From an uncultured Gemmatimonadales bacterium (GTDB taxonomy: Bacteria > Gemmatimonadota > Gemmatimonadetes > Gemmatimonadales > GWC2-71-9): a stretch of DNA of 64,000 nt. The notes beneath the pieces are model-generated. The model searched no databases. It was not told the DNA's origin and saw only the letters and a list, made by a program, of their open reading frames with translations. Within the stretch, counting starts at the first letter, position 1; every line of letters starts with the position of its first letter. Below, piece by piece: positions 19,301 through 61,922 of this stretch. Made by a program: the position numbers and the translations under genes. The stretch covers positions 32,001 to 96,000 of the forward strand of contig CAWGED010000006.1 in NCBI GenBank assembly GCA_963821525.1. Direction: 5' to 3'.

Positions 19301-19463
19301 ACCGCGTCTGGATCGAATCTAGACCCAAAATAGTCCTTGCCTACACCGCGTCAGCCTCCAAAAGTTGCCAGTCACCGCGCCTCGTAAGGCGTCCAAACTC
19401 GCTACTAGAGAATCCCGGGTTGCTGCGGACTCATCGCGGTCGTAACCCGGATAAGAGCCGATC

Positions 19464-22471: not shown

Positions 22472-22496
22472 AGGGGCAGGAGACGGGAACGCAGTC

Positions 22497-33795: not shown

Positions 33796-33796
33796 C

Positions 33797-43866: not shown

Positions 43867-45381
43867 TCACCTGGCCTCCTCCCTCGCCCGCCCCGGCAAC
43901 GTGATCCGGTAGTCCATCCCGAACTCCGCCGGATACTCGAACGCAAGCCTTCCATTGTTCTCGGCGATTATCCTCTGCACGATCGCAAGGTCGACGGCGT
44001 CTCCCCTCTTTCTGTGCCCAGGGAAATAGGAATAGACCCACTTCTCCAAGGCGGTTTGCGGACTCCCCCGACAGCTCACCATCATGGTCACGCCTCGCGT
44101 TGGGTCCACAAGATCAGCTTGGGCCGAGACCGTGACATATCCCTTGGCCGGCGTGCACTTGACTGCATTGTCGATGACGAGTCCGAGTGCCTCGGACAAC
44201 TGAGCCGGGTCTATTGCGACGGCTGGCAGCTTGGAAGAAATGTCGGCGTGCAGCTTGATCCCCTGGCGTTGAGCGCGCTCCTCGAGCGAGCGTACCAGGT
44301 CACGAATCATGTCGCTGGGGTCGAACCCGGCCACGCCGATTGAAACACGCGGGATGATGCGATCGGCCTCCTCCTCCAGTGGTCGCGCATAGCGCTCCGA
44401 TGCCAGGGCGGTGATGGCGGTGCGTATGGCCTCGGTTCCTTCTTGAGCCGGCACCGTGAAATCCTGTCCCGCCTCCTCAGGATCGGCATCCCAGGCGTCG
44501 AACCGATCGAGTATCTGGAGGACCGACGGCACCACCGCTCCCGAGCGTTCACTGAACCAGTAGCCGAACAGGTGCCAGAGAGTGCTTTGGAACCGGGGGT
44601 CACCATCGAGTGTCCCGAGAGCCCGGTACAGTCCGTCACTGAGAAAGAGGAATCCGCGCAGCCCCCGCAGGGCATCATCGAGGATGTCCCGCTGTTCGCG
44701 GGGTCGCGCCAGCCGCTCGGCCAACTGTGCCGGCTCGCTGACGACTTGGAACAGGTGCTCCCGCGTGTAACCCCTGATCTGAAAATCGTCCGCCAAAGCC
44801 AGAAAGACCTGCACCTCCGGATTGCGGATGAAACGGGTCTCGAGTTCGAGAATGCGCTGCAAGGCGGCGACTTGGCGAGGCCCGCGGTGCACCTGAACGG
44901 AGCCAAAACCCTCGAGGCGGGCACGGAATAATTGAGGAAGCAGCAGTGGATAGTGCGACTCGTAATACGTTCGGACTTCCCGGCGTTCCAGGATCCGGGT
45001 TGCCTGCGCCCGAAACTCACCGTCCATCGGCGCTACATAGTCGACCTGTGTCGCAATCTCCAGAACGGAGTAGCAGGTCAGCAGATCATCCAGTGCCGCA
45101 CGATCAATAATCTCCTGAGGATCGCTGATCTTTCTGGTCCGGTGGTCCCGGAGTACCACCTCGAGATCCCTTGGGTAGGTCTGGCGCTCCACCGAGTCGA
45201 AGAGGTCGATCGCCCGCGGCGCCTCCGTGTCGTCGTAGTAGAGTTGCAGCAGGTCCTGGAGATTGTGGTACTGAAGTTCAGAGGAGATCTCGAAAGGCGT
45301 GTCGAGGTCCGGTACAACCGGCTCGATCCATTCCGCTTCGGGTTCGTCCGGTTCCGGGTAACCTTGTTCTTGCTCGGCCAT
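43867..45381 (-). CDS. Unknown helical N-domain plus degenerate C-terminal HATPase_c-like domain
   Basis: C-terminal DPAQLSEAL-VIDNAVKCT (N box) and DLAIVQRIIAENNGRL-YRITLP. G boxes are altered and no H-box is visible. Confidence 0.7.
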   Translation of the reverse strand: MAEQEQGYPEPDEPEAEWIEPVVPDLDTPFEISSELQYHNLQDLLQLYYDDTEAPRAIDLFDSVERQTYPRDLEVVLRDHRTRKISDPQEIIDRAALDDLLTCYSVLEIATQVDYVAPMDGEFRAQATRILERREVRTYYESHYPLLLPQLFRARLEGFGSVQVHRGPRQVAALQRILELETRFIRNPEVQVFLALADDFQIRGYTREHLFQVVSEPAQLAERLARPREQRDILDDALRGLRGFLFLSDGLYRALGTLDGDPRFQSTLWHLFGYWFSERSGAVVPSVLQILDRFDAWDADPEEAGQDFTVPAQEGTEAIRTAITALASERYARPLEEEADRIIPRVSIGVAGFDPSDMIRDLVRSLEERAQRQGIKLHADISSKLPAVAIDPAQLSEALGLVIDNAVKCTPAKGYVTVSAQADLVDPTRGVTMMVSCRGSPQTALEKWVYSYFPGHRKRGDAVDLAIVQRIIAENNGRLAFEYPAEFGMDYRITLPGRAREEAR

Positions 45382-45396
45382 GGAGTCCTACCGCAT

Positions 45397-46231
45397 CTAG
45401 ATGTGAGGCAGCAGGTGGCCGATCGGAATGGCATACCCTGAATCCGGTTTGCACACGCCGATATGCCCCATACCCTTGACGACTTTGGGACCCGGATCGG
45501 CGCAGAAGCGCACCGCTTTGACGATCCGATCCTTGTCTCCCATCACGACTACCTTCGCCTTGAGAGCCCCGAAACTGCCTTTCAGAAGCAGCGCATCGGT
45601 GTCCTTCTCCAGCTTCTTGAGAGCGTCGGAACCGGGTTCGAGATCGGACAGCACCTGGGCGAAGGCCTTGGCGCCAGACTTGGCCAGCGCACCGAAACGG
45701 GCAGGGAATGCGTTCATGGCTTCATCGGCGAGCGGCAGTATCGCCGCCCCCGTATGCGCCGGGGCGAAGAGAACCAGGGCAATCCTGGAGATCCAGGTCG
45801 CGGGAGGCGTGTCCATTGCAGCTTGAATCAGGGCCTCGCGGACCACGATGGCGCCGAGGGAATGCGCCACCAGGGTTATTGCCTGGTACTGGAAGAGCGG
45901 GTCGGAGCGACGCGCGTCCTTGAGCGTTGGCTGAATTGCCTGCGTGTAGGGATCGGTAGCGAGCGCCTGCAGAAACTCGAGAAACTGGGCGGCGCTGACT
46001 GGAGCCTGCTTGGTGAGCGAGTCGTATCCGTAGAAGAGAAGATCGCGGCCGGCACACTGGGGCTGCAGCGGTAGCAGACTGAGAGAACTGGTCCCAGGTC
46101 GCCTCGGCCTGGCCTCCAAACCCATGCACGAAGACGACCGCACGTCCTACCGGCTGTATAGCCCAGCGAACGCTGCTTTCATCGCCCCACGGGAGTGGTC
46201 GCGACTGGTAGTGGGTCTGCGCCTGCGTCAT
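45397..46231 (-). CDS. Alpha/beta hydrolase (lipase/DUF676-like; indel near 46090)
   Basis: Motifs AVVFVHGFGG, LVAHSLG, P-H-G, DRIV and HIGVCKP. Confidence 0.8.
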
Positions 46232-46259
46232 AGTAGGTCCTGCCAAGATACTAATGATG

Positions 46260-48746
46260 TCACCCAACCATCGCCCCCAACTCCCCACTCAGCCGCTTCC
46301 TCGGCTGCGCCGTTGACCCGATCACCGCCCCGATCGCCTCCTCCATGTTGGGCCACCGGTCCTTCGGGTCCTTGGCCAGCATCCTCATCACCGCACTCTC
46401 CAGCTGCTCCGGCACCTCGGGCTGGCGCTGCCGAATCGGCTCGGGGATGGCGTGGAAATGTTCGAACATGATTGCCATGGCCGAGTCGCCCCGGAAGGGT
46501 TGGGTACCGGTCAGGGCCTCATAGGTCAGCACCCCGAGCGAATACTGATCGGAGGCGCCGGTGATTTCCTTCCCGGCACACTGCTCCGGGCTCATATACG
46601 CCGGAGTACCGATGACCGCACCGGTCCGCGTCTGGTTGTCAGACTCGGTCACCTTCGAAATCCCGAAGTCGGTGATCAGCGCTATGCCATCGCGATCGAT
46701 GAGAATGTTCCCCGGCTTGATGTCGCGATGGACGATCCCGCGCCGGTGGGCATAGGCCAGCCCCTGTCCGACCTGTGACACCACCTCTGTGGTCATCGCC
46801 GAGTTGAGCCGCTTCTTGTCCCCGATCAGATGGCTGAGCGAGCGGCCATCCACGTACCGCATGACGAAGAACATGAGTCCTGCCATGTCCCGCACCGCGT
46901 AGATGGGCACGATGTTGGGATGCGAGAGCGACGCCATGACGCGAGCCTCGCGCTTGAACCGCTCGACGAATTCCTGATTCCTGAGGCCCGGCGCCAGGAT
47001 CTTGATCGCCACTTTTCTGGCGAGCGCGATGTCATCGGCCAGGAACACGGTTCCCATTCCGCCGGTCCCGATCAGACCACGAATCTCGAACTCGCCATTC
47101 AGGACATTGCGGAGATAGCCCTCCAGCTGCTCGGGACCGCCATACGGCCCAGACCAGCGGCGGGTCATCATGGTTGCGTCGGTCGGCGGAACGGCCTCGG
47201 TGGGGAAGATGGTCCGATCGGGTGACGGTGAAGGGGCGGGTGGCGGCGGCGCCGACGCCATCATTGTCCGGTTCAACTCCGAGGCGGACTCGATCACCGG
47301 ATCCTCCGCAAACCGGGGCACAATTCCCGTCCCCAGCACTTCGCGACCCTGGGCCACCTCCTGTCGGGCCTGGGGCGAAAGGACGAGCATCTTCCCCGAC
47401 GGCACGAACAGTCCTGCCTCGAGCAGTACCAGAAGCAATCGATTGACGATCGCCTCGTGATCCCGTGGGCGGATGCCCGAAGCGATCTTCCCCAGCGCCG
47501 ACATCGGACTCTGCGACGGTACCGAACCCCGTGCGACGATGTCTCGAGCCACGGTGAGCACGAAGCGCCGGCAGCGGTCCTGGTCTGCCGCCGCCATCGC
47601 GCCGAGTGGACTGCCCAGCATCTCGTCCTCATTGAGATGCAACAACTCGTGCAGGGCGCTGTAGAACTCGATCGTGGCGACGGCTTTGTCGTCGAACTTG
47701 AGCATCGCCTCTCCGTCTCCACCCACCTCCACCCGCTGTTCCATCAGCTCGACGCAGCGGCTGGGGAATCCCGGTACTCATGAGGGTCAGGTACCGGGTG
47801 AGCTTGGGAAAGAGTGCCAGTGCCTCGGGAGACGCAGCAGGCAGATCGATGTGCCGCTCCAGCAACTGGGGCAGCTCGTCCCAGAGACAGGTGAGATAGA
47901 TGTCGAGGAACGGCGGAAGGTCCTCGTGCCCTGCCTGCCGCCTGGTCTGCCACCTGGCTCTCACCTGCGGTGGTGCCACGACGAGGAAGATCGAATTCGG
48001 CGCCCGGAAGAGATTGGCCAGACTCGCCATCACATCCCAGTCCTCGATCCGATCGATCACCACCACGACCATCGGGGGCGTTCTCGCCGGCGACGTGGTA
48101 AAGAGCCGCCGCAACAGAGGAACCCGGGAGAGACGGGGAACTGCGGTGATGGAGCTGATCAGGCTGTCCCAGCTCGAGCAGCGTGCTCTGAATGTCGTAG
48201 GGGAGGTAGACCGCCTTGCGGGTTTTCTCGACCGACTCCTGGGCGCCGAGCTCCAACTTAAGGGGGACATCTGATTCCGATTGTCGGGTTCAGGCTCCGC
48301 TTGCTGCCGACCGTCTCCTCGACTGCGCTGGTGGCCACTCCCTGGTAAGCCTCGAGCAGTCGCGTGTGGTGCGATTTGGAGAGATCCAGTTCCGAAGCTT
48401 CCACCATCCACTTCAGGTGCCAGAGGAGTCGCTTGGAAATCACCTCGGCACCAGCCAGGGCTTGGGCTCGAAGCTCGAGCACCACCAGATCCGTCTTCCG
48501 TCCCCGTTCGTCGGGCTGGGCGAGCAGGGCTTGCAGCTCGTACAGAATGCGGCGGACGAGGGAAGTCTTGCCGACGCCGGAGTAGCCGCTGATCAGGAAC
48601 CGGCCGGTCCCATGCTCCAGCAGATAATTGATGACCCGCTGGCGGGGCCCGTCCCGCCCGAGTAGCGCGTCAGGATCGGCGCCATCGAGCGGTTCCAGGT
48701 TGAACGGGATGTCGGTGAGAGGGAAACTGACCCCGCCCTTACTCAT
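46260..48746 (-). CDS. P-loop ATPase fused to a Ser/Thr protein kinase (several indels)
   Basis: ATPase: LLGRD, Walker A GYSGVGKTS and Walker B VVVIDRIE. Kinase: GTGGMGTV, VAIK, HRDIKPGN, DFG and GTPAYMSPE. The fusion is inferred across frameshifts. Confidence 0.75.
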
Positions 48747-49542
48747 GCAAGGGACGCCTGCGTGAAAGCTTAGCCAACAGTGGGGTTTGGCCTCGGCGAG
48801 GGCAAGATGGGCGGCCAAGGGGTAAACGGTGAACAGTGAACCGTGAACGGGGCCGGTCGAAGGCCGCACTCACTTGTTAAGGCCGCTGCGGCGGGAAGAA
48901 GCAGTCTCCTTGGGTTGCTTTCGGAGAGGGATTGCTTCGGTCGCTACGTTCTCCTGCAATGACCGAGCCGTGGAGCCGCCGAGATGCCGGAACCAGCATC
49001 ACGTGGCATGAAGTGCCCAAAATTTGGTCGAGGCATAGTCCTTTGTGCCGAGATCACAGGGTGTGGGTTCTTGACGCGCCAAACCCATTCCATACCTTAG
49101 CGCGGTCGATCTGGTCCCAGATGGAAATGGGGCCATTGTTGTCATAGAGCCGGGTATTGTAGAGGGTCTGAAGGTCGATGGTAAACACGTCGAAGTTAGG
49201 GCCGGTGGGTGTGCAATGCCGTGTGGCAGGAGATCCGCGCGACCTCCGGCGAAGCCTGTCACCGAACCCTCACCTCTCTCCTCGCCTCACTCTCCGCTGC
49301 ACTTTCCTCATCTCGAGTTGCGGACATCACTCCCGCAACAATCCCCAACACACAAGCCGTACTGTCGTCCGCGATCATCGCGTCGGCGCTCGCTGGTCTC
49401 CCATTGTAACGATCTCCCCGCCCCGCGACTTCCGCTTCCATAAGAGCGCCCTGCGGTATCCGCTAAGCATCGTAACCCAGCACGGCCAATTGCCTCGCCC
49501 ACCCACCAGAGCGACGCGGCAGCGGACACAAGGAGTTCTCCC

Positions 49543-51181
49543 ATGAAGAAACGCTCGTCCCGGGCCCGTGCGAAGTCGTCAGGACTCGCAGCGTTCCACG
49601 ATGCCAAGGAGCGGCTCTCTGCTCAGTACGTCCGCTCTTCCACGCTGACGGCGGCCGAGTCGCTTCGCAGGACGGGGCCAGACCCCGCTGCGAATGTGGT
49701 GGGCGTGGGTATTGGCGAGAAAGTCACCCGGGGGCGAGCTGACCGGGCGTCGTGCCCTGAAAATCCTGGTGCGTCACAAGCTTCCGCTCGAAGCAATCGA
49801 GGAGCGGTTTAAGCTGCCGACGACTGTCGATGGGCTGCCAGTAGACGTCGAGGAGGTGGGACTCATCGTGGCATTCGCGCCGCCGATCCCCAACCCCAGG
49901 ACGCGGCTGCGGCCCGCACCGCCGGGCAGTTCCGTCGGGTTCAAGGATCCCAAAAACAAGTTCAAGATGGCGGGCACCTTCGGGGCTCTGGTGCGCAACT
50001 CCTCGGGTGTGTTCATCCTCAGCAACAACCATGTACTTGCCGATGAGAACAAGTTGGCCCTTCAATCCCCCATCTTCCAGCCTGGCTTGCTCGACGGTGG
50101 CAACACGTCCAAGGACAAAATCGCGGCACTCACTCGCAGGATTCCTCTGCGCAAGACCAAAAACAGCGTCGATTGCGCGATTGCCAAGGTTGTCGCCGTG
50201 GCCCAGGTCACGTCCGCCATAATCAAGATCGGGCCGCCTACCGGTGTAAAGAATGCCGCCTTGAAGATGAACGTGCACAAGTTCGGTCGGACCACGAGCT
50301 ACACCACGGGCAGCGTCACCAGTATCGATACCGATGTGAACGTGCAGTACGATTCGGGTGTGCTGGCCTTCAAAAGCCAAGATCATGATCAAGGGAGATG
50401 GAGGACGTCCCTTCAGCGCGGCCGGGGATTCTGGCTCGCTGATTCTGGAACGCTCCTCTGGTAAGGCGGTCGGGCTGCTCTTCGCCGGTGGCACGACGGC
50501 GACCTTTGGCAATCACATCCAGGATGTACTACGCGCCCTCGGTGTGACCCTCATCCAAGGTCAGTTTCCGGCACCTTCACCCAGCGCGAGTGCCTCTCCC
50601 AGCGCCAGCGCCTCTGCGAGCGCCAGCCCCTCGGCCAGTGCAAGTCCATCGGCCAGTGCGAGCCCGTCTGCCAGCGCGAGTCCGTCTGCCAGCGCGAGTC
50701 CCTCGGCCAGTGCGAGTCCGTCGGCCAGTGCGAGTCCGTCGGCCAGTGCGAGTCCGTCCGCCAGATCGTCGCCAGCAGTCCGTCCGCCAGCGCGAGCCCG
50801 TCCGCCAGCGCGAGCGCGTCGGCTAGCCCCAGTGCTTCGCCCAGTGCCAGCCCGTCGCCCAGCGCGAGTCCATCTCCCAGCGGCAGTCGGGCGACGAAGT
50901 CCCACCCACATCGGCCTCACGTCAAACGCCATGCCCACCTCCCCCACATGCACCATCCTCACCCGCACAGTCCGATCGCCGAGGAAATCATCGAGCGGGC
51001 GGTGACGGAAATGGTGGGACCGGCCCCTGCTCCACAGGCCGAGCGTGCGGCTGAAGCCCAGGTCGAGGGAGTTGTCGCCGAGGTGATAAAGGAAGTTGCG
51101 GAGTCGAAGCGGACCTTGCCCCGCATGCGGGGTCGAGTCAGCCGGAAAACCAGGAAGGCCCGATCGAAAGGCCGGGGATAA
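49543..51181 (+). CDS. Trypsin-fold (Nal1-like) protease with Ser-Ala-Pro repeat, His-Pro and basic tail (indels)
   Basis: AAGGAG RBS. N-domain NVVGVGIGEK-LKILVRHKL-DGLPVDV. Triad LSNNHVL / VDCAIAK / AGDSGSLIL. Then SASASP repeats, HPHRPH-HHPHPH and RMRGRVSRKTRKARSK. Confidence 0.82.
50578..50882 (+). repeat. Coding tandem repeat (SASASP, 18-bp period)
   Basis: TCGGCCAGTGCGAGTCCG-type units with synonymous variation. Confidence 0.9.
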
Positions 51182-52026
51182 TGGGGCGGCCGCGGTCGGC
51201 GTATCTCCTCTGTACTCTCCCCCGGTCGGGGAGCTGGATGCTGGCGCATGGGCTCCGAGTGACCGGAGTCGCCGGCCGGCCGGAAGAGTACTTCTGGGAG
51301 GATCTGCGTCCGGCCTACGCCAAGCATTGGGGACTCTCACCTGAGGTGTCGCAAAGACGGTTCCTTCGCGCCGCCATTCGTGCCGGCACTACTCCGAATG
51401 GGATGTTCGGGGCGAAGGTGCATTGGTTCGAGTTGCAGCAACTGCTATGGCGCCTGCGCCAGAACTCCGGAGCCCAGAGGCGCTCGGCCCGTCGGCTGAT
51501 TAACGAGGCACTCGACAAGCCAAGTTTCGTGCGACTGGTCCGGGAGGATAAGGTCCGCCAAGCACTCTCATATCACAAAGCGCTGGTCTCCGGAGAATGG
51601 TGGAGGGCTGGGCAATCCCACCCTGTAAATAGAGCGGTGGGCTCCGTCGATTTCCGGCTGGTCTGGGAACTCGAATCCCTGCTCGCCAGCCACGAACGAC
51701 TGTGGACCCGATTCTTCGCGCAACACCGGATCACCCCGCTCGTCGTGACTTATGAGGAGCTATGCGTCAACTACCGGGAGGTACTGCGGCGCGTGCTCAC
51801 CTTCATCGGAGTGGGACGCATCGATTCGGCAGACCTCGGCGAACCGGTGCTCGAGCAACAGGCCGATGAAGACACGGAGCTGTTGGTACATGACTACATC
51901 ACGACGCAGCGATCGGCCGTTCCGCTCCGAACCGAGCCTAACGGCGCGGGGCGGGTACTCCAGGGGGCATCGACAAACGGGCATCGGGTCGATGGCCGGG
52001 CCTACTCCTTGGCTACCGGGTCGTGA
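51181..52026 (+). CDS. Stf0/NodH-like sulfotransferase
   Basis: Motifs CTLPRSGSW, GRPEEYF, TPNGMFGAKVHW, REDKVRQALS and VTYEEL. TAATG overlap. Confidence 0.88.
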   Translation: MGRPRSAYLLCTLPRSGSWMLAHGLRVTGVAGRPEEYFWEDLRPAYAKHWGLSPEVSQRRFLRAAIRAGTTPNGMFGAKVHWFELQQLLWRLRQNSGAQRRSARRLINEALDKPSFVRLVREDKVRQALSYHKALVSGEWWRAGQSHPVNRAVGSVDFRLVWELESLLASHERLWTRFFAQHRITPLVVTYEELCVNYREVLRRVLTFIGVGRIDSADLGEPVLEQQADEDTELLVHDYITTQRSAVPLRTEPNGAGRVLQGASTNGHRVDGRAYSLATGS

Positions 52027-52797
52027 CAACGCCGCGGTTCGACACGCAGCGTCCTGCGTCGGTTCTCGCCAATCGCCGGTGGGTAAAAAACGTCTTTCCC
52101 TATACCTACTACACCGCGAGCAACGTGTTCACGCCCAGGATCTACCAGATGTTCGAGTCGGCGTTCCGCGAGCACACGAACGGGCGGCAGCAGTACATGG
52201 ACAAGCACGATACCGTACGGGGTGACTCTGACTCGAGGCGTGGACGGGCCGCTGGGCTTCTTTGCGTCCCGCGGATGGTACCGAGATGATCGCCCGGCTG
52301 GTCGGCATTCAAGGCCACCCCACACCTGAACATCGGACTCCACCATCACGAGCCCGGCGAGCGAGAACGGCTTCGTGCATAACGACCTGAATCCGGGCTG
52401 GTTCGTCGACTACGAGAGCGACCAGGGAACCGCGCTCGCGCAACCTGGATTTGTGCAGCTACACCACCGGTGAGGCGACGAAAGCGGAGATCAAGCCCGA
52501 GAAGGACCGTCCGGGCCGCGGCATTGCTGTTCATGTTGCCAACCCACCCTGGAAGCCGGGGATGGCGGAGAGACTCGGCATCTATCGTCAGGGGAGTGAT
52601 CGATCCGGAACGTCCACTCGAGCGCTGTCCCGCCGATCAACAACTCGATTCTCCTGTTCGAGTGCACTCCCTGGTCGTTCCATAGCTTCATTCAGAACCG
52701 GCGCACCGCGCGCAACAGTCTCGTCATGTGGTGGCACCGCGAGCCGAGCGACGTGGTGCGTCGCTGGGGTGCCGATTCAATCGTCGATTATCGGTGA
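52023..52797 (+). CDS. 2OG-Fe(II) oxygenase (several indels)
   Basis: HxD in GFVHNDLNPGWF (~52378), distal His in FECTPWSFHSF and 2OG-binding Arg in RNSLVMWWH, read across frames. GTGA overlap. Confidence 0.72.
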
Positions 52798-53596
52798 GGC
52801 TTAGGGATGCGGACCGGACCAAGCGGGTGTGCATGCTCACCGGTGCGGGGGGCACGTTGGGGAGCGCGTTCTGCAGACTGTACGGAGAACGTTACGATAT
52901 CGCGCCGTGTACCGGACGCGGCCACCTCCGGTGGCGTCGCAGCAGCGCTGGTTCATGGACCCTGTGACGGGGCGCCGGGTCAGGAGGGCGAACCGGCCGA
53001 TGGTCTTCGAAATCCAGGCCGATCTGTCGCTGGCGCACGAAATCGATCGCGTGGTGGACGTGACACTGGCGCGGTTCGGCCGAATCGACTTGGTGGTCAA
53101 TGCCGCAGCCCTCGTGAAGGACGCGCCGTTCCTCGATCCGCCCGGTTCGAGGAGGCGCTGGGGAGCAGCTGCTGGTGAACAGCCTCGTGCCGCACCGGCT
53201 CACGGCCAATATCTCGATGAAGTTCTGGCGGGGCCGCCGGGCGGCCAACCTGCGCGCAACCGGAACGTCGTCAACGTATCGAGCGTGTCCGGCTTATTCA
53301 TTTATCCTCGCTCGCGGCCGCGGCGCGCCTACGGCGCCTCCAAGGCAGTCATGAACTTTCTTTCCTGTCAGATGGCGAGCGAATGCAGGCGTTTCGGTGT
53401 GCGGTCAACGTGGTCGCGCCGACCACGTTCCCGAAGCTCGGTCCCGACCAAGCGGGTGGCCGCGGCCATCGTCGGACTCGACCGACGCAGGATGAACGGC
53501 CGGATCCTGGTGATCGCGCAGACAGGCAGCCGCTACGCGCCTGACAGCGCCACCGTGGCGGAGCGCTCGAAGCGTCTCCCCCGAGCTGGAGACTGA
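52794..53596 (+). CDS. SDR family oxidoreductase (indels)
   Basis: Motifs LTGAGGTLG, FGRIDLVVNAA, NVSSVSG and YGASK. Confidence 0.82.
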
Positions 53597-53600
53597 CAAC

Positions 53601-53942
53601 ATGGTCGTCATTGGCCGCGGGCACAACGCATCAAGGAGAAGCATTCAGAACAGCTCATGTCACGTCCGGGCAGTATCGGGAGTCGGCGTGGAACAGGATG
53701 CTGATGGGACGCCGGTAGTTGTGATCCACACCGATCCCCGGGCAGCGGCGCACCTGGCCGACCTGCCGTCCGAGCTCGAAGGTGTGCCGGTGCGAATCGT
53801 CGAGGACGTGCCGTTCCGCAAGCAGGGCCGCGGCGCGGGCGAGGCAGCTGAACAGTTCATCGGCAGGTACATAGACCAGTCAACACTTCACCGCGCCCCT
53901 TGCCCGTGCCTCGGGCGGCTGGCCGCGAAGCGTGGGAGGTGA
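53601..53942 (+). CDS. Small protein resembling the stand-alone N-terminal domain of the Nal1-like proteases (boundaries uncertain)
   Basis: VSGVGV-VVVIH-LPSELEGVPVRIVE-PFR parallels VHNIGIG-LKVYL-IPKEIEGLPTDVVETGPFR of protease 2. Confidence 0.6.
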   Translation: MVVIGRGHNASRRSIQNSSCHVRAVSGVGVEQDADGTPVVVIHTDPRAAAHLADLPSELEGVPVRIVEDVPFRKQGRGAGEAAEQFIGRYIDQSTLHRAPCPCLGRLAAKRGR

Positions 53943-54036
53943 TCCAGTCGATGACAGCATAGACCCCGGAGCTGCGAACAAGAAGGCCTCGGCCTGACGA
54001 GCTCGCTCGGCGAGAGGTCGCGCGCTGCGACCGCGC

Positions 54037-55565
54037 ATGGAACCGCCCTCGCCTCCAGGGCCACCGGGAGACCCACCGACGCGGCGCCGACACCACCCGG
54101 ACCACCGCCCGGTCCGCCGCCGGGACCACCACCCGGTCCGCCTCCGGGACCACCGCCCGGTCCGCCTCCGGGACCACCACCCGGTCCACCTCCAGGACCG
54201 CCGCCACCTCCACCACCGGGACCGCCGCCACCCTCCACCACCGCCGCCGCCACCACCACCGCCGCCGCCACCACCGGGACCGAGTGGCAGCGCAGGCCCG
54301 AGTGGAAGCGCTGGTCCAAGCGGAGGCCCGAGCGGGAGCGCAGGACCCAGCGGTAGTCCGAGCGGGAGCGCAGGCCCCAGCGGCAGTCCGAGCGGGAGCG
54401 CAGGACCGAGCGGGAGCCCGAGTGGGAGCCCGAGTGGGAGTCCGAGTGCGAGCCCGAGTGCCAGTCCCAGTGCGAGCCCGAGTGCCAGTCCCAGCGCAAG
54501 TTCGACTCCCAGTCCCAGTGCGACTCCGACACCGAGCCCGACGGCTACTCCAACGCCCAGTCCAACGCCAACGCCGGTGCCGCATCCGCATCCGCACCCG
54601 CATCCGCATCCGCATCCACATCCACACCCGCACCCGCACCCGCATCCGCATCCCCACCCGCACGCGGCATCCACATCCGCACCCGCACGGGCATCCACAT
54701 CCGCACCCGCACGGGCACCCACATCCCCACCCGCACGGGCATCCACATCCGCACCCGCACGGGCACCCACATCCCCACCCGCACGGGCATCCACATCCGC
54801 ACCCGCACGGGCATCCGCACCCGCACGGGCATCCGCATCCGCACGGGCATCCGCATCCGCACGGGCATCCACATCCCCACCCGCACGGGCATCCGCATCC
54901 CCACCCGCACGGGCACCCACATCCCCACCCGCACGGGCATCCGCATCCCCACCCGCACGGGCATCCGCATTCCCCACCCGCACGGGCATCCGCATCCCCA
55001 CCCGCACGGGCACCCACATCCCCACCCGCACGGGCACCCACATCCCCACCCGCACGGGCACCCGCACCCCCGCCCGCATCCGCACGTGCACCCGCATTTC
55101 CCACGTGCGCAGGGCCGTCCCTATCGGTGGATACGCCGCCGTAGAAGGCTCCGTATGCACCCTCGCGCTCGGTTCCGCCGATACGCGTACCGTTGGGCCG
55201 GGTGGATGCCGAGGAGGGTCAGGCGGATGCTCGCACGGCGGAGACGTGCGATCCGGCGTCGCTTTCCGCCGCCCTGGATTCCGCCGATTCGATGGCGTCG
55301 GCGGCGGAGGCCACACCGCCTGGCTCACCCACCGCGGCGTCGTCGGCCGCATCGGAGGCTGGGGGCTCACGTTCATCCGCCCCTTCGCAGGAGACGGCGT
55401 CGCCCTATCGCCGTCCGCGTTCACCCACGCCGCCGGGTTCACCCGCGCCGCCGGGTCCACCCGCGCCGCCGCGTGAGGGCTCGGGCACGGCGTCTCAGGC
55501 GTCGCCTGCGCGTTCGGCGGGCAGTACGCCGGGCCGCCCGCAGTAGGAGGAGGTCTCGTAGGTGA
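54037..55565 (+). CDS. Low-complexity block-repeat protein (~510 aa): GPPP/polyPro, SGSAGP/SASP/TP, HP/GHPHP and Arg-rich tail (indels near 54085, 54230, 54665)
   Basis: Repeat variation is synonymous in this reading. The His-Pro frame runs directly into ORF 55086..55565. The start position is uncertain. Confidence 0.75.
54095..55100 (+). repeat. Nested coding tandem repeats (12-bp GPPP, 12-18-bp Ser-Pro, 6-bp HP, 18-24-bp GHPHP units)
   Basis: Directly visible periodicity such as CCCGCACGGGCATCCACATCCGCA. Confidence 0.95.
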
Positions 55566-55657
55566 GATGAGTTGAAGTAACCGGGCGCCTCGGGCCGAGG
55601 TCGTATTCCTGACCTGGGCTCGGGTCGCTCGGGTGTACCTCCAATTGCGAACACTCA

Positions 55658-56566
55658 ATGGTGAAAAGTCCTTCGCCTCGCCCGGTTGACCTGAGCGTGA
55701 TCGTGGTCAGCCACAATGAAGGAGAGCTCCTCGAGCGCACTGTCCGCAGCCTGATCGCAACTCTGCCGGAGCAGGGCACCGAGGTCATCATCGTGGATGA
55801 TCAGTCCGACGACGACAGTACTGTTTTCCTCAAAAGGTTGGATCGATCATCGGTGCGGCTGATCAGGTCACCCGAGCGCCTCGGCATTTCAGCAGCTCGG
55901 AACCTGGGAGCGAGGTCAAGTTGCGGTGAGGTAATCGTCTTCAGCGACGCCCACGTCCACGTGTACCCGGGTTGGGCAGAGCCACTCTGGCTCACGGCTC
56001 TGAAGCCGTTTGTGGGCGCTGTGGCGCCGGAGGTGCATTCGATGCACGAGCCTCATATCAAGGGGTACGGCTTCACCTGGCGTGATCCGTCGCTGAAGAT
56101 GCACTGGCTGCGCCGCGGGGGCACGGCACCCTACCCGGTGCCTTTTCTGTGCGGCTGCTTCGTTGCCTTGAGCCGCACTCTGTTCGAAATGACCGGGGGC
56201 TTCGATGAGGGCCTGATCCGCTGGGGGTCGGAAGACGCTGAGCTCTCGCTTCGGCTTTGGCGCATGGGATACGAATGCCATGTAGTGCCTCGATCGTCCG
56301 TGGCGCACCTGTTTCGGAGGAGATTCCCTTACCAGGTGAGCTGGGAAGGGATCTTGCACAACACGCTCCGGCTTGCCACCGTCCACTTCGGACCCAGGGC
56401 CCTCTCCCGCGTCATGCAGCACTGGAACGACCACGCCGCGCTTCCCCGGGCCACGGCGACGCTCTGCCTGAGCGACGTTTGGAGCCGACGCGAAAAAGTC
56501 CAGCGAACCTGCCGGTACCCCGACACTCGGGTCTTGGACCGCTTCCGAATCGAGGCGTTGTCGTGA
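55658..56566 (+). CDS. GT-A glycosyltransferase with polypeptide GalNAc-transferase-like motifs
   Basis: Motifs SVIVVSHNE, IIVDDQSDD, RLGISAARNLGA, FSDAH-GWAEPL, GFTW, FDEGLIRWGSEDAELSLRLW and VAHLFRRRFPY. Confidence 0.88.
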   Translation: MVKSPSPRPVDLSVIVVSHNEGELLERTVRSLIATLPEQGTEVIIVDDQSDDDSTVFLKRLDRSSVRLIRSPERLGISAARNLGARSSCGEVIVFSDAHVHVYPGWAEPLWLTALKPFVGAVAPEVHSMHEPHIKGYGFTWRDPSLKMHWLRRGGTAPYPVPFLCGCFVALSRTLFEMTGGFDEGLIRWGSEDAELSLRLWRMGYECHVVPRSSVAHLFRRRFPYQVSWEGILHNTLRLATVHFGPRALSRVMQHWNDHAALPRATATLCLSDVWSRREKVQRTCRYPDTRVLDRFRIEALS

Positions 56567-57435
56567 TGCCAGTAGCTTCAGCGTTCCATCTTCTTCCCGA
56601 GATCGGTGTTTACATCATCGGGATGCACCGGAGCGGCACCTCCGTTACGACCCGCCTGGTGAATCTCTATGGCGTCCAGCTTTGTCTCGACAACGATCTG
56701 TACGCCGGTGTCAAGGGAAATGAGCGCGGTCTCTGGAAGTCAAAATCGCTGGTCCGATTCAATGATTCGCTGCTGCACCAACTGGGGGCGGAGTGGTGGT
56801 GTCCACCGCGGCCCAACCGGGTGTGGCCCCAGCATCCCAGTCTTGAGCAGCCCCTCTCCTTGGGACGCGCTCTATTCCAACGTCTACATCCGACGAAGCA
56901 ATGGGTGTGGAAGGATCCTCGAACCTGTATCACGCTGCCCTTCTGGCTCCGCGCATTGGAGGCGAAACCTGTCGCGGTGTTCGTGCTGCGGCATCCGCTG
57001 GAAATCGCGGCCTCGCTGCTCGCGCGCAACAAGTTCGACCTTGAGCTTTCGCTAGCGCTGTGGGAACGGTACCTGCAACACGCCTTGCCTCACCTGCACG
57101 GGTTGCCGGTCACGGTAGTGCGGTTCGAGGCGCTCCTGAACGACCCGGTTGGCTGCTCTGCCTCCATCGCCGCTTTTCTCGGGCGCCACGGAGTCGCCGT
57201 CGGCCCGTCGCCCGATCCCTCTGCGATACGTGGCTTCGTGGAGCCCTCCCTGCGGCACCACACTACTGAATGGGACAGGTCATCGAGCGGGAGCCTATCC
57301 TCATCGCAACAAGCACTTCATGAGAGGCTGCTCGCTGCCGCCGGCGATCATGACCGGTTCGATGCGGCCTCCCTGCCGGTCGAAACCGTGAAGACCGACA
57401 CCCTCTTCGCCGGACTGCAGCACCGGTACCACTGA
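56566..57435 (+). CDS. PAPS-dependent sulfotransferase
   Basis: Motifs IIGMHRSGTS, GNERG, WKDPR, RHPLEIAASL and VRFEALL. TGATG overlap. Confidence 0.88.
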   Translation: MPVASAFHLLPEIGVYIIGMHRSGTSVTTRLVNLYGVQLCLDNDLYAGVKGNERGLWKSKSLVRFNDSLLHQLGAEWWCPPRPNRVWPQHPSLEQPLSLGRALFQRLHPTKQWVWKDPRTCITLPFWLRALEAKPVAVFVLRHPLEIAASLLARNKFDLELSLALWERYLQHALPHLHGLPVTVVRFEALLNDPVGCSASIAAFLGRHGVAVGPSPDPSAIRGFVEPSLRHHTTEWDRSSSGSLSSSQQALHERLLAAAGDHDRFDAASLPVETVKTDTLFAGLQHRYH

Positions 57436-57470
57436 GGCCTCGGAGCACGGGCCCGATCCGACGGCTCGAG

Positions 57471-58487
57471 GTGTTGCGGGCCCAGTACGAGACTCGGCGC
57501 CCGTCAGCGTCGAGAGGGGTAGATGCCACGTTGGTCGTTATCACTAGAAATGAAGGGCAGGCCCTGCGCCATACTATCGATCGCCTACTCCAAACCGCAC
57601 CAGCCTCCACCGAGGTTGTGGTCGTCGACGACGGGTCGACCGATGGTAGTATCGACTTCCTCACCGCCAGCCATTCCCCGATTCGGCTGGTGCGCTCCAG
57701 TCGACAGCTGGGGATCGCACGGGCCAGGAATCTCGGCGTGCGAGAGGGCAGAGGCGAGCTCATCGTGTTCTGCGACGCCCATCTGGCGCCCGCGAAGGAT
57801 TGGCTCCGCCCCCTCGCCGAGGCGGTTCGTTCACCCGGCGCCGGTGCGGCAGGTCCCTGCCTGGCTTCCTACACCAAACGCAGCGTCAAAGTGTATGGAC
57901 TCCGTTTCGTGGACGACGTGCTCAACGTAAGGTGGCTTCCTCCGCAGCGCACCGAGCCGTATCCGGTTCCTCTTCTCGCAGGATGCGTTCTGGCAATCAG
58001 GCGGGAAGTCTTCAATGAGATCGGTGGCTTCGACGACGGCATGTTCGGCTACGGGTCGGAAGACCTGGAGTTGTGCCTGCGGCTCTGGCGCTCGGGACTC
58101 GACTGCCTGGTCGTACCGGAATCCGAGGTCGCACATCGCTTCCGGGGTGCGGGAACCCGGCACATTGATCAGGAGCTGAGCCTCTTCAACCTGCTCCGGA
58201 TGGGCATCCTGCATCTCGGGGAGCAACGCCTCATTTCGTTTCTGAACGCGCTGCGACGGAACGCTGCCTTTCCCGAAGCCATGGCACGAGTGCTCTCGGG
58301 AGACACCTTTCGTCGGCGGGCGCAGCTGGGCGGAATGATGCAGTTCGATGATGCGTGGTTCTTTGAACGATTCGCGACTCCGATGCCCGGCTCGGTGGAA
58401 TCCAGCAACGGCAAGCATCGCGAGTTCAGCCACAACGGCGCGAAAGTCCGCAGCCGAGGAGGTTCCGATGGGGTACCGGCATCTTAA
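57471..58487 (+). CDS. Second GT-A glycosyltransferase, paralog of 55658..56566
   Basis: Motifs VVDDGSTDG, LGIARARNLG, FCDAH-WLRPL, FDDGMFGYGSEDLELCLRLW and VAHRFR. Confidence 0.88.
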   Translation: MLRAQYETRRPSASRGVDATLVVITRNEGQALRHTIDRLLQTAPASTEVVVVDDGSTDGSIDFLTASHSPIRLVRSSRQLGIARARNLGVREGRGELIVFCDAHLAPAKDWLRPLAEAVRSPGAGAAGPCLASYTKRSVKVYGLRFVDDVLNVRWLPPQRTEPYPVPLLAGCVLAIRREVFNEIGGFDDGMFGYGSEDLELCLRLWRSGLDCLVVPESEVAHRFRGAGTRHIDQELSLFNLLRMGILHLGEQRLISFLNALRRNAAFPEAMARVLSGDTFRRRAQLGGMMQFDDAWFFERFATPMPGSVESSNGKHREFSHNGAKVRSRGGSDGVPAS

Positions 58488-59331
58488 CCGGAATGCGTGG
58501 TCATATCTCGTCGAGCGCCGGGAGGAATCAACCCGCCCCTATGGCCCGGCCGAGTTCAGTCAGGCCCAATACTGGCTGGACTCGAGCGACTGGATTCCAT
58601 GGGAGGAGGTGAACCGGGTGCTCTGCCTCGCCTCGGGTGGCGGCCAGCAGGGTCCGCTCTTCGCATCCCTCGGGCTCGACGTAACCGTGTTCGACCTGAA
58701 CCCGGATCAGCTGCGAACGGACCAACGCACCGCCCGGCGACATGGATTGTCGCTGCACTGTGTTGAAGGAGACATGATGGACCTCTCCCAGCTCCATGGC
58801 GGCGACTTCGACCTCGTCTATCAACCGATCTCCTCTCTCTACGTGCCCGACATCCGGAAGGTCTACCGGGAGATTTACCAGGTGCTGAGACCCGGGGGCT
58901 ACTACTGGGTGGAGCACTGGAATCCGGTGCAGATGCAGCTGTCAGAATCGAAACCCTGGGACGGGGAAGCGTACCGAGTGGTGTACCAGCAGGACACCGG
59001 TCAGCCGCTGGCGTGGGAGATGTCGACCAAGAAAGGCCAGTCGGCCATCTCGTGGAACTACATCCATTCCCTGGAGGCCTTGATCGGAGGGATCTGTGAA
59101 GCTGGAATGGTGATTCTGCAATTCGGAGAGCGCCATGATGGCAACCCGTCGGCTCGCCCCGGCAGCAACGCTCACATGTCGGCCCACATTCCCAGTTTCT
59201 ACTCGGTCTTCGCGGTGAAACCGGGGGCGCAGCCTCGGCGCCGGAAGCCGCGGCCCGGGGCGTTGCGATCAGGGAAGCCGGGTCGCGCGGGAGGCGAAAC
59301 GGGGCCTAACAGGTCACGAAGTGCCGGCTAA
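58468..59331 (+). CDS. Class I SAM-dependent methyltransferase
   Basis: GAGGAGG RBS. Motifs VLCLASGGGQQ, VFDL, EGDM, FDLV and VLRPGG. Confidence 0.9.
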   Translation: MGYRHLNRNAWSYLVERREESTRPYGPAEFSQAQYWLDSSDWIPWEEVNRVLCLASGGGQQGPLFASLGLDVTVFDLNPDQLRTDQRTARRHGLSLHCVEGDMMDLSQLHGGDFDLVYQPISSLYVPDIRKVYREIYQVLRPGGYYWVEHWNPVQMQLSESKPWDGEAYRVVYQQDTGQPLAWEMSTKKGQSAISWNYIHSLEALIGGICEAGMVILQFGERHDGNPSARPGSNAHMSAHIPSFYSVFAVKPGAQPRRRKPRPGALRSGKPGRAGGETGPNRSRSAG

Positions 59332-60115
59332 CCTTCCGTGAAACCGCCTCGCGGCGCTGCGGGGTCGTGATACCATAGCCGAACGCCTGCGCCAGGCGCT
59401 CGATTCCCGTCTCCGCCAGCTCAGCGAGAGCCTGGGGACGAGTCTCCCAGCGCTTGAAATAGGCTTCATTGACGTCCGGGCGAAGTCCCTCGATGGAGAG
59501 TGGCCCCTCCAATCCCAGAAACTCCAGGACCCTTCCGAGCACCTCAGCGGGCCTCTCCACCAGATCCTCATACCGCACGAGGACCACCTTGCGGAGGGCC
59601 GGAGCGTCCTCCAGGAGCAGGCGATGGCAGTGTGCCCAGTGCTGGACCAGCGAAGCGAGACTCGACTTGCTCCATTTGAGTGTCGCCTCGGCAACAGCAA
59701 TCGGGTGCCGGATGATCAAGACGAAGTGAGCTGGCGGGAAGAGCGCTTGGAGCAATCGGGTCCGGAGCAGGTTGGGTGGCGACTTCTCCAGGAGAACCGG
59801 GCGAGATGAATCCCAGTAGGGCAGCCAGGATGCCAGGAGCCGGTCCCGATTGCCGGGAGTACTGAGCGGTGATTCTTCTGTCAGATGCGCGGCTGGCGAG
59901 AATCCAAAGCGTCCCGGACCACCGATCGCGAGCGCGCTGGGAAGAACGTCCTGCAAGTGCTGGCCCTCATCTTCGGGAACCCTGGATCTGCTGAGGCCGC
60001 TGACCGCCGCATGGGAGGCCAACCCGCGAGACAGCATGCTGGTGCCGCTGCGGTGAAGCCCCCCGACAAACACGAATCGGTGGCGACGGACGAACCCGCC
60101 ATCCAGGCGCAACAC
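59306..60115 (-). CDS. Sulfotransferase
   Basis: Motifs FVGGLHRSGTS, EDEGQHLQ, LEKSPPN, RHPIAV and RYEDLV. Confidence 0.88.
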   Translation of the reverse strand: MLRLDGGFVRRHRFVFVGGLHRSGTSMLSRGLASHAAVSGLSRSRVPEDEGQHLQDVLPSALAIGGPGRFGFSPAAHLTEESPLSTPGNRDRLLASWLPYWDSSRPVLLEKSPPNLLRTRLLQALFPPAHFVLIIRHPIAVAEATLKWSKSSLASLVQHWAHCHRLLLEDAPALRKVVLVRYEDLVERPAEVLGRVLEFLGLEGPLSIEGLRPDVNEAYFKRWETRPQALAELAETGIERLAQAFGYGITTPQRREAVSRKVSRHFVTC

Positions 60116-61186
60116 CTAGACGCCTCCCGAAGTGGAGTAGTGAACAAAGAGTCGCCGGAAGTAACGCCGGTAGGCTCCTGCCACCGCTGGCGAGCGGATG
60201 AAAAGCACGTCTTCGTTGTTGGTCTCGGCGCTGGTGGAAAAGTTGTAGCTCCCCGTGATTACCGTGTGATCGTCGAGAATGAAAGTCTTCAGGTGGTGGA
60301 AATCGTTGAGTCCCCCCGGCAGAGTCATGAAAGGATGGGAGCGGACTCCGACAAACCGTTGATCGCCCAGATACCACCAGTACAGGCGGGGATCGGGTGA
60401 TTTCACGAACGCGAGGGCGTCCTTCATGCCGTTGACGTCGAAGATGCCACGGATATCGGCGCCAGGATCCGCGAAACGGGTGAGAGCCTCGCCGATTTCC
60501 GGGTCGCTCAGCTCGAATGCCATCATCCGCACTTTGGTTGCTCGTCCCAGGGCGCTGGCGATTGCGTTCTCGACTTTGGTTCCTGCCGTGGGTTCGAAGA
60601 AGGGCCACAGCCAGGCCCCGGGGACATCGCCAATCCGTCGCCGGCTCAAGGCGATTGGCAGAGCGAGCGCCTGGGTCGGCTCGGCCCAGATCAGGTCGAA
60701 GGCCTGCCCATATCTGCGGGCCAGCTGTTGCGAGTGGACGACGATCCAGTTGTTGTCCTGAAGCTGGAGAGCGCCAGTGGTAAAGTTGCCGGTTCCGGTC
60801 CAGATCGACTTTCGGTCGCGGATGAGGAATTTGTGGTGAAGGTAGGTCTTCGAGGTGCGTCGGATTTTGCGCGAATGCTGGAGGAGGCCGAACTCATCGA
60901 GGGCTGCCTCGGTACCGTTAGGCTTTGGATCGGCCCCGGGCTTGAGCTTCTCGGGCTCCCCAGCATCGAAGGCCACTCGGACGCGGCACCCTTCTCGCAT
61001 CTTCCGGCGCAGGGCGGCGAGAACTTCAAGGTCGCGCAGGTCGTAGATGGCGCAGTCAATCGACCGCTGGGTGGCTGCCACGAAGTCAACCAGGCGACTG
61101 GTCACATCGCCGGTCAAACCGGCCCGCTTCGAGGTGAAGAAGATCCGGATCCCGGGAACGGCGAAGGTATAAAGCGGCTGGCGCAT
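60116..61186 (-). CDS. Phospholipase D superfamily protein (two HKD motifs; nuclease or lipid enzyme)
   Basis: HHKFLIRD...TGTGNFT and HLKTFILD...TGSYNFS-NNE. Stop directly abuts the sulfotransferase start. Confidence 0.88.
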   Translation of the reverse strand: MRQPLYTFAVPGIRIFFTSKRAGLTGDVTSRLVDFVAATQRSIDCAIYDLRDLEVLAALRRKMREGCRVRVAFDAGEPEKLKPGADPKPNGTEAALDEFGLLQHSRKIRRTSKTYLHHKFLIRDRKSIWTGTGNFTTGALQLQDNNWIVVHSQQLARRYGQAFDLIWAEPTQALALPIALSRRRIGDVPGAWLWPFFEPTAGTKVENAIASALGRATKVRMMAFELSDPEIGEALTRFADPGADIRGIFDVNGMKDALAFVKSPDPRLYWWYLGDQRFVGVRSHPFMTLPGGLNDFHHLKTFILDDHTVITGSYNFSTSAETNNEDVLFIRSPAVAGAYRRYFRRLFVHYSTSGGV

Positions 61187-61309
61187 TGATGCCGTCCACG
61201 ATTGGTGCTTGGCGGTAATCTACTGCGAGTACCCGTGCGTTCCAGATGATCGGCCGCTCGCAACGATTGGCACATCCCCCAGTGGGCAAAGGGAAGAAGG
61301 GTGAGGTAT

Positions 61310-61340
61310 TATTGACTTATCAGTCAATATACGCTACTTT
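61310..61340 (+). promoter_or_regulatory. TetR operator overlapping a sigma70-type promoter
   Basis: Perfect inverted repeat TATTGACT-TATC-AGTCAATA (61310-61329). -35 TTGACT (61312-61317), 17-bp spacer, -10 TACTTT (61335-61340). Confidence 0.75.
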
Positions 61341-61346
61341 CTCCCC

Positions 61347-61922
61347 ATGCCTCGCCCCCGTGAATTCGACCCCGACCTCGTCCTCGACCGCGCCGTCGAG
61401 CTCTTCTGGGCCAAAGGCTATGAGGGCACCTCGATCAGCGACCTCGAGGAACACCTCGGCATGGGGAGGCAGAGCCTCTACGGAGCATTCGGAGACAAGC
61501 ACGAGTTGTATGTGAAGGCGATGGACCGCTACGCCTCCTCCCAGTCGTGGACCAGGAAGGATCTGCTCAAGCCCGACGCCGGGGTGGAGGAGATCAGGGA
61601 GTATTTCAAGGGACTCATTTCCGCGGTAACGCAGGAGCCAAGGCGGTCCTGCATGCTGATCAACGCCGCCATCGAGGGCGATTGTGAGCACCCGAAAGTG
61701 GCGGGGCGCTGCACCGACAATCAGCAGAACCTGACCCGCGCCTTTCGCCACGCCCTCGAGGGTGCAATTGCCAAAGGGCAGCTGGACCGGAAGACCGATA
61801 CCAATGCCCTGGCCCTGGCGCTGGTCAGCCAGTCCTTCGGCCTCAACGTGATGGCGCGGAACGGGGCGTCCCCGGCGACCCTGGCCAAGGTGGCCGAAAG
61901 CATCATGCAGGTCTTCAAGTAG
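61347..61922 (+). CDS. TetR/AcrR family regulator (NemR/ComR-like)
   Basis: MPRPREFD-LFWAKGYEGTSISDL-SLYGAFGDKHEL and CMLIN. Confidence 0.92.
   Translation: MPRPREFDPDLVLDRAVELFWAKGYEGTSISDLEEHLGMGRQSLYGAFGDKHELYVKAMDRYASSQSWTRKDLLKPDAGVEEIREYFKGLISAVTQEPRRSCMLINAAIEGDCEHPKVAGRCTDNQQNLTRAFRHALEGAIAKGQLDRKTDTNALALALVSQSFGLNVMARNGASPATLAKVAESIMQVFK

Follow-up and report, generated by a model that had tools for sequence, protein, structure and literature searches.

The stretch of DNA analysed here (64,000 nt, hereafter the window), which belongs to a soil bacterium's genome of 19 contigs that is 81% complete and has a GC content of 65%, contains a plus-strand gene run from 49543 to 59331 in which the likely gene of a disordered block protein of ∼530 residues lies next to the genes of soluble enzymes resembling polypeptide GalNAc-transferases (GalNAc-Ts). 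We lean slightly towards the view that the block protein is the substrate of these adjoining enzymes. Since it sits in a recurring cluster together with enzymes shaped like mucin initiators, it is likely to be the target of an undescribed bacterial protein-sugaring pathway.

The first-pass annotation of the window had proposed a four-block copolymer at 54037-55565. Three-frame translation combined with Tandem Repeats Finder recovered all the blocks, in that order and on the plus strand, as follows.

53935-53939, plus strand: GGAGG ribosome-binding-like site (feature 53935-53953, including the ATG below)
53951, plus strand: probable start ATG of the block protein
53954-54089, plus strand: N-terminal leader and Pro-rich lead, with at least two frame breaks, outside solid short-read contig coverage
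54037-54080, plus strand: Pro-rich short lead
54090-54276, plus strand: block 1, nine GPPP units and polyproline, with a frame break at ∼54233
54099-54206, plus strand: the nine GPPP units, in six distinct DNA forms
up to 54276, plus strand: polyproline run
54277-54579, plus strand: block 2, SGSAGP/SGSP, SPSA and TP, ∼100 residues, holding the bulk of Ser/Thr
54277-54438, plus strand: SGSAGP/SGSP part, with five SGSAGP copies in five distinct DNA forms
54439-54579, plus strand: SPSA/TP part
54580-55085, plus strand: block 3, (HP)n and GHPH/GHPHPHPH, ∼168 codons, with breaks at ∼54665 and ∼54971
55086-55565, plus strand: block 4, Arg-rich tail, 159 codons of which 72 are Arg, ending at a TGA

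The length of block 3 agrees with the ∼170 residues of His-Pro first estimated. Summed over five separate segments starting at 53958 (532 residues), the protein consists of 31% Pro, 18% His (96 residues), 15% Arg, 10% Gly and 8% Ser. Ser and Thr are nearly absent from three of the four blocks, and the only three Tyr residues are within the Arg tail. Block 2 has the composition by which Pro/Thr/Ser-rich tandem domains of mucin/PTS glycoproteins are recognized and, judging from its sequence, is the predicted O-glycan acceptor. No Pfam domain was detected in the protein, and a hydropathy proxy revealed no hydrophobic N-terminal stretch from either candidate start, the frame of the leader being uncertain; both results are in line with the original reading that signal peptide and globular domain are lacking.

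The sequence is also unusual within its genome and among known proteins. Pro-containing peptide repeats occurred in 10 of 850 strand-wise 10-kb segments of the genome, two of which correspond to the block-gene locus, and genome matches to the His-Pro, GPPP and SPSA patterns were confined to the block-gene cluster. A (PPT)n peptide repeat was noted elsewhere, on the plus strand of C5:1090000-1100000, and is a possible further acceptor. The Arg tail gave no match among 1.84 billion protein representatives, where a self-match would score E = 7e-77, as anticipated by the suggestion that gene callers would miss this gene. Two block-protein queries of the ESM Atlas returned one lead of 0.76 and no usable match; across both collections no homolog of the stand-alone block protein was found.

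Differences among the copies of each repeat point to a coding sequence. In the proposed plus frame 38 out of 38 differences were synonymous and fell at codon position 3 (GPPP 18, HP 8, SPSA 8 and GHPHPHPH 4), which substantiates the synonymous pattern initially reported; in block 3, where two stretches were tested, the count was 12 out of 12. In the remaining two plus frames almost all the differences were non-synonymous. Together with the five SGSAGP copies written in five DNA forms, these counts indicate selection on the peptide and not DNA slippage. Because the minus strand contains long open frames, we also considered that the coding strand might be the opposite one, with a Gly/Cys/Leu-rich mirror protein as its product. 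The mirror frame shares its third codon position with the plus frame, and GPPP and SPSA are fully synonymous in it as well, but the His-Pro blocks separate the two strands: there the mirror frame was synonymous at 6/7 and 2/4 sites, that is, non-synonymous at 3 out of 11. Besides, the flanking genes are all plus-strand, and related loci carry the same blocks as in-frame tails of recognisable plus-strand proteases. We thus regard minus-strand coding as very improbable.

The plus frame is interrupted four times within 54037-55565, where about three indels had been counted at first. The sequence is one base short at ∼54080 and has one extra base each at ∼54233, ∼54665 and ∼54971. The protease, oxygenase, short-chain dehydrogenase (SDR) and small genes that lie upstream are frame-broken as well. 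A read-level check of the indels, as originally suggested, relied on short-read contigs from four runs (X1-X4), three of which are labelled rhizosphere metagenome and all of which are dated 2012 and may belong to one campaign; the comparison with these contigs covered the oxygenase gene, the surroundings of ATG 53951 and the Arg tail. Within 52045-52532 of the oxygenase gene, six single bases of the window were absent from the contigs of near-identical strains, all six when compared with X1 and three also with X3, an indication that base insertions are locally over-represented in the assembly. Like the six errors of the oxygenase, three out of the four breaks inside the block gene consist of an added base. 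As for the Arg tail, parts of it are covered by contigs from X1-X4, with X3 contigs tiling 55100-55651, and no frameshift was present in the long, near-identical contigs (at least 95% identity). One contig showed an in-frame 18-base deletion at 55440, equivalent to one RRVHPR unit, and the substitutions were one synonymous and one Ser to Arg change. An apparent pair of compensating one-base indels at 55440-55445 was discarded because it came from 37-base pieces of unrelated contigs. The check therefore confirmed the frame of the Arg tail and exposed the surplus bases in the oxygenase gene; for the repeat core (54086-55099), we infer that the breaks are assembly errors.

With at least four frame breaks and no homolog among the protein representatives, the locus could be taken for a decaying pseudogene, or its repeats for non-coding DNA or an assembly artefact. 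Such an origin seems quite improbable to us: slippage or misassembly would not be expected to leave copies that vary at synonymous sites only, similar breaks in neighbouring genes were exposed as errors by short reads, the Arg tail is intact in other strains, and there is no Rfam match in the region. The block gene is likely to be real and coding-like, and broken only by assembly errors.

Its start probably lies upstream of the ATG at 54037 from which the gene was initially read. A collinear X3 contig from a more distant strain (depth 3) encodes Met-Lys-His-Arg-Pro-Arg-Ser from the position of ATG 53951, and the window encodes the same peptide after one extra base, the codon differences being synonymous. 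ATG 53951 follows a GGAGG site and no GGAGG-like site precedes ATG 54037; peptide and site together place the start 86 bases upstream of 54037, a probable assignment that comes from one contig of depth 3. Note that a start at 53951 requires additional breaks upstream of 54037.

The identity of the enzymes encoded around the block gene had been missed in the first-pass annotation. The cluster comprises, besides the block gene, the following genes.

49543-51180, plus strand: Nal1-like trypsin protease, frameshifted, whose homologs carry PF25819/PF13365
51181-52026, plus strand: Stf0-family sulfotransferase (PF09037, E = 5.6e-36), 39% identical to its L053 ortholog
52023-52800, plus strand: 2OG-Fe(II) oxygenase, prolyl-hydroxylase-like, broken, 39% identical to an intact ortholog in L053
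52807-53596, plus strand: SDR, frameshifted (PF00106, E = 1.7e-10), 39% identical to its L053 ortholog
53601-53830, plus strand: small protease-associated protein, frameshifted, end uncertain, of a kind that accompanies Nal1-like proteases
55658-56566, plus strand: soluble ppGalNAc-T-like glycosyltransferase 1 with motifs DAH, WGSEDAE and HLFRRRFPY, no lectin domain
56566-57435, plus strand: sulfotransferase, Sulfotransfer_3 (PF13469, E = 1.1e-6)
57471-58487, plus strand: soluble ppGalNAc-T-like glycosyltransferase 2, 41% identical to transferase 1
58465-59331, plus strand: class I SAM methyltransferase, 51% identical to its L053 ortholog
59306-60115, minus strand: convergent sulfotransferase (PF13469, E = 9e-23), candidate cluster member

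The protease has a tail of its own, made of (SPSASA)n, His-Pro, an acidic stretch and a basic end, in the same block order as the block protein, and 10 out of 10 repeat differences in it are synonymous. Its nearest homologs, P0122 and P0123, also end in HP/TP tails and basic ends, and the small protein at 53601-53830 matches the C-terminal domain of another protease homolog, P0161, with 45% identity across 51 residues. The intact L053 ortholog of the oxygenase matched PF13661/PF13640, and its best PDB matches, both weak, were OGFOD1 (3e-4) and prolyl 4-hydroxylase 6t8m (0.016), a weak likeness to prolyl hydroxylases seen at the level of sequence. The sulfotransferase at 56566-57435 had no PDB match at E = 0.1, and the one on the minus strand weakly matched CurM (1e-5) and protein-tyrosine sulfotransferases (7e-4 to 4e-2). 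Enzyme fusions link these functions in P0295 (methyltransferase, Stf0 and transferase in one chain), in P0107 and in L053, where a Sulfotransfer_3 sulfotransferase is fused to the second transferase. The genome encodes an APS kinase, for the sulfate donor. No Rfam match was found in 48800-61500, promoter and terminator scans stayed at chance level, and no transporter was seen within 49543-60115.

Other genes of the window deserve mention. A gene for a phospholipase D-like protein (60116-61186, minus strand) adjoins the minus-strand sulfotransferase. A row of minus-strand genes at 43867-48869, encoding an AAA/STAND-like NTPase, a Ser/Thr kinase, an alpha/beta hydrolase and a HATPase-domain protein, is possibly a conflict or signalling module. 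On the plus strand, 19464-22656 encodes two further proteases that look Nal1-like on inspection and both combine a small domain at the N-terminus with a helical one at the C-terminus, and is followed by very large frameshifted ORFs with no obvious annotation (22497-35578), which we take to resemble giant gene arrays of the DUF6603 type.

Both glycosyltransferases of the cluster are closest to polypeptide GalNAc-Ts by sequence and, for transferase 1, by its structural model; the activity is predicted. When a profile built from transferase 1 together with 16 homologs was compared with the PDB, the 16 best sequences were polypeptide GalNAc-Ts (E = 3e-40 to 7e-29) and the first match of another kind appeared at E = 4e-20. 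Transferase 2 on its own likewise had GalNAc-Ts as its 16 best PDB sequences (8e-20 to 8e-16). The model of transferase 1 reached a mean pLDDT of 91.6, and every fold match listed for it was a GalNAc-T, with TM values of 0.71-0.82 over the whole model. D97-A98-H99, W189-G190, E192, E195 and H217 were invariant in 17 out of 17 aligned homologs, and the DxH, WGxE..E and C-terminal metal His of transferase 1 aligned to the motifs of mouse T1; the roles of DxH and His344 in GalNAc-Ts are treated by Brockhausen (PMC4202792). Loose motif counts among 120 listed homologs gave D[ASG]H in 120, HxF[RK] in 118 and W[GA]xE[DN]xE in 97. JGI automatic labels called four of these 120 homologs polypeptide N-acetylgalactosaminyltransferase. 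In P0283 a GalNAc-T-like domain is fused to a tubulin-tyrosine-ligase-like domain (PF03133), a hint of protein modification.

Transferase 1, of 302 residues, has GT2-type Pfam matches only, no ricin lectin domain, no Golgi membrane anchor and no hydrophobic N-terminus. Among 81 longer relatives, the lectin domain PF00652 was present only in a fish GALNT, P0303. The GT60 Pfam family PF11397 matched one out of 17 members, at E = 0.12, and nothing in the genome. Lacking both a lectin domain and a PF11397 match, the enzyme is GT27/GT60-like by structure and is filed under neither family. In a quick tree the fish GALNT, a single eukaryote on a long branch, grouped among the bacterial family and apart from ordinary GT2 with 99% SH-aLRT. 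According to Taujale et al. (PMC7185993), GT27 and GT60 have DxH in place of DxD, and GT60 is found in prokaryotes and protists; West et al. (PMC8724618) present GT60 enzymes as relatives devoid of a lectin domain, and the Skp1 pathway of the cytosol as a prolyl hydroxylase paired with a GT60-type transferase.

We then compared loci from other genomes, among them those of a metagenome scan that covered 10 of the 64 parts of the collection. The first-pass annotation had proposed a compositional search beside glycosyltransferase homologs, and such a search found Pro-containing peptide repeats on the transferase strand at 5 out of 14 GalNAc-T-like family loci and at 3 out of 116 ordinary GT2 loci (Fisher p = 3e-4, a value that overstates the contrast because the criterion was set after the loci had been seen and the kin loci L051 and L052 are among the five positives; the loci also differ in length). 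When only loci with at least 55% GC were considered, the counts were 5 out of 8 and 2 out of 54. The count excluded 80 viral loci, the loci of the genome itself (L001, L129 and L130), the duplicate L057 and the short L211-L214, which were replaced by L215-L218.

Among the five, L053 (73% GC) contains orthologs of both transferases, the sulfotransferase, the methyltransferase, Stf0, the oxygenase and the SDR at 39-54% identity, and also a JmjC enzyme. Its S53 protease carries (HPP)n, (TP/HP)n, polyPro and (GPG)n repeats, a Hint domain and a basic tail; at 4995-7592 the block tail of the protease is followed by the Hint domain and then by a short basic peptide. In L051 and L052, the gene directly upstream of the transferase encodes a globular protein in which (PPY)n, (TGTPQP)n and (SPSAS)n repeats are combined with a basic end. 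In L052 a tetrapyrrole-methylase-family gene at 170-1351, presumably borosin-like, lies immediately upstream of the block protein and the transferase. L055 encodes short polyproline proteins and L056 an S53 protease with (TPTPHP)n. At 9591-20845, L056 also contains several more glycosyltransferases, a JmjC enzyme and a trio of small paralogous proteins, which we assume to be DUF2589-like.

What stays constant among the block proteins is the presence of Ser/Thr-Pro and Pro tracts. His-Pro tracts are present in L053, L056, P0122 and the protease of the window and are absent or sparse in L051, L052, L055 and P0123; such patchiness makes His-Pro one variable block and not a constant of the system. 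A basic C-terminus is shared by the two proteins of the window, L051, L052, L053, P0122 and P0123, but not by L055 and L056, and its recurrence lends weight to the Arg-rich end initially described. Among 120 protease homologs, filtering found two Pro-rich tails, in the second and third best matches, plus one Gly/His/Pro tail, so that Pro-rich tails are rare in the Nal1-like protease family.

A block protein was absent from the other nine of the 14 family loci, namely L050, four in Bacillota-like genomes and four in Planctomycetota (L050, L054, L016-L018 and L215-L218), from which we conclude that the transferase family does not need one. The GalNAc-T-like genes of L016, L017, L018 and L054 stand alone amid housekeeping genes of Bacillota-like genomes. 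At the family level, no transferase was found in 60 relatives (best E = 4e-20), in 400 genomes of the same phylum or in 401 genomes of the class of the alphaproteobacterial centre, in searches of which the large ones scored 5-7 candidates per genome; its absence from the relatives and the phylum fits an island. A Planctomycetota-centred search found distant members in 3 out of 301 genomes, none with block proteins. A single-protein search of genome contigs returned distant relatives only, viral contigs had no close transferase member (best E = 9e-19), a plasmid search gave one Cytobacillus match at 35%, and a search with the S53 protease yielded nothing useful.

The loci devoid of a block protein bear on what the enzymes make. 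It could be that the gene is real and that the enzymes build a sulfated glycolipid, a polysaccharide or a small molecule, the block protein being an unmodified partner in the same island, a scaffold that binds metals and polyanions. In keeping with this possibility, relatives that act on small molecules exist for Stf0, the SDR, the methyltransferase and the MftF-like transferase; among named bacterial families the nearest were MftF (E = 8e-34) and the trehalose sulfotransferase Stf0 (E = 1e-31), with both matches far below cut-off. In addition, one study (PMC6821194) connects low-complexity regions rich in His and Arg in prokaryotes with the binding of metals and nucleic acids. The transferases, on the other hand, are much closer to polypeptide GalNAc-Ts than to any bacterial GT2 of solved structure, and the block proteins have Ser/Thr-Pro and not His as their constant. 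We judge this explanation unlikely, while taking it more seriously than the others weighed against a glycosylated block protein.

The recurrence of proteases (Nal1-like and S53) in the clusters, the many near-identical units of the block protein and the tetrapyrrole-methylase-family gene next to the block protein of L052 suggest yet another fate, that of a multi-core precursor which the cluster protease cuts into short His-Pro, Ser-Pro or Arg-rich peptides to be decorated by the enzymes. The blocks, however, vary freely between loci and are often tails of the protease itself, the block proteins have no recurring cleavage site or conserved leader, and the gene run shows no transporter, which renders a peptide precursor improbable.

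If the block protein is the substrate of the GalNAc-T-like enzymes, as we favour, both transferases would add alpha-HexNAc in the cytoplasm to Ser/Thr residues beside Pro in block 2. Hydroxylation of prolines would fall to the 2OG enzyme, and the resulting hydroxyprolines could be glycosylated too, while the sulfotransferases, the methyltransferase and the SDR would complete the glycan. What results would be a stiff, anionic stalk of the bottle-brush type, flanked on one side by a polyproline rod and on the other by two sticky ends, the His-Pro block for divalent metal and the poly-Arg block for polyanions, and might serve as a scaffold or matrix polymer acting with the block-tailed protease. 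The modifiable stalk of the first-pass annotation gains support from the GalNAc-T-like and prolyl-hydroxylase-like neighbours and from the recurrence of block proteins beside the transferase family. As a hydrophobic N-terminus was lacking in every block protein and enzyme examined, the product would stay inside the cell or exit by an unseen route. A broader proposal, which we put forward tentatively and hold to be somewhat short of an even bet, is that soil bacteria own a mucin/extensin-like pathway in which soluble GalNAc-T-like enzymes, together with sulfotransferases and a prolyl hydroxylase, assemble brushes of sulfated O-glycans on block polymers encoded in the operon; the GalNAc-T-like enzymes would come from the lineage that gave eukaryotes GT27/GT60, and the polymers would stand alone, as in the window, or be swapped as tails onto unrelated proteases.

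Mucin-type initiation has been described for animals and protists. In the literature, chiefly open-access, we found no description of the block-protein cluster or of bacterial GalNAc-T-like enzymes with co-encoded acceptors; bacterial relatives of the transferases may already be listed in the supplement of PMC7185993, in CAZy or in West et al. 2004. New here would be a variant of co-encoded protein O-glycosylation, predicted from sequence. Engineers, as one report states (PMC13345888), have imported human GalNAc-T2 into E. coli to make mucin-type glycans. If our reading is true, a soluble, lectin-less bacterial counterpart with an adjoining acceptor would bear on the origin of GT27/GT60, and the bacterial transferases would lend themselves directly to the making of mucin-like materials. 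In the block protein one would have both a test substrate and a block copolymer of natural origin, apparently missed by protein collections.

The cluster can be set beside several known systems. With respect to RiPP precursors, the block proteins have no leader in common. The period of GPPP is four residues (12 bases) and differs from the Gly-X-Y triplet of collagen-like proteins. Serine-rich repeat proteins are low-complexity proteins glycosylated by cytoplasmic, co-encoded GtfA/B and served by an accessory Sec system. The cluster resembles them in its co-encoded glycosyltransferases, predicted to be cytoplasmic, and its low-complexity protein, but the enzymes are GT-A GalNAc-T-like instead of GT-B GtfA/B and the block protein is Pro-/His-rich; GtfA/B, SecA2/SecY2, a signal peptide and a wall anchor were absent from the genes scanned in 43867-61186. 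The His/Pro-rich region of histidine-rich glycoprotein is a long His/Pro/Gly tandem tract that binds divalent metals. Block 3, a putative metal binder by analogy, has a similarly long tract, although its unit is GHPH/GHPHPHPH, there are no cystatin domains, and the likeness seen is one of composition. With extensins and other HRGPs, the block protein shares Pro-rich repeats arranged in blocks (polyPro, Ser-Pro, His-containing), for which extended rods are predicted, and proline hydroxylation followed by glycosylation would be common to both; in contrast to extensins, its repeat blocks contain neither Ser-Pro4 nor Tyr crosslink motifs, a signal peptide is lacking, and the transferases belong to another family. 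The pairing of a lectin-less, presumably cytosolic DxH transferase with a prolyl-hydroxylase-like enzyme resembles the GT60/Skp1 system as outlined in PMC8724618 and PMC7185993, but without a PF11397 match and with a repetitive polymer as putative target instead of one proline of a folded protein. Compared with GT27 mucin-type O-glycosylation, the enzymes here are bacterial and soluble, have neither ricin lectin domain nor membrane anchor, and their activity is predicted, while the acceptor-like protein is cluster-encoded, lacks a signal peptide and carries His-Pro and poly-Arg blocks. The cluster nevertheless shares with the GT27 system the catalytic fold, the DxH, WGxE and C-His motifs, more than one transferase paralog and a Ser/Thr-Pro-rich tandem tract that resembles an acceptor.
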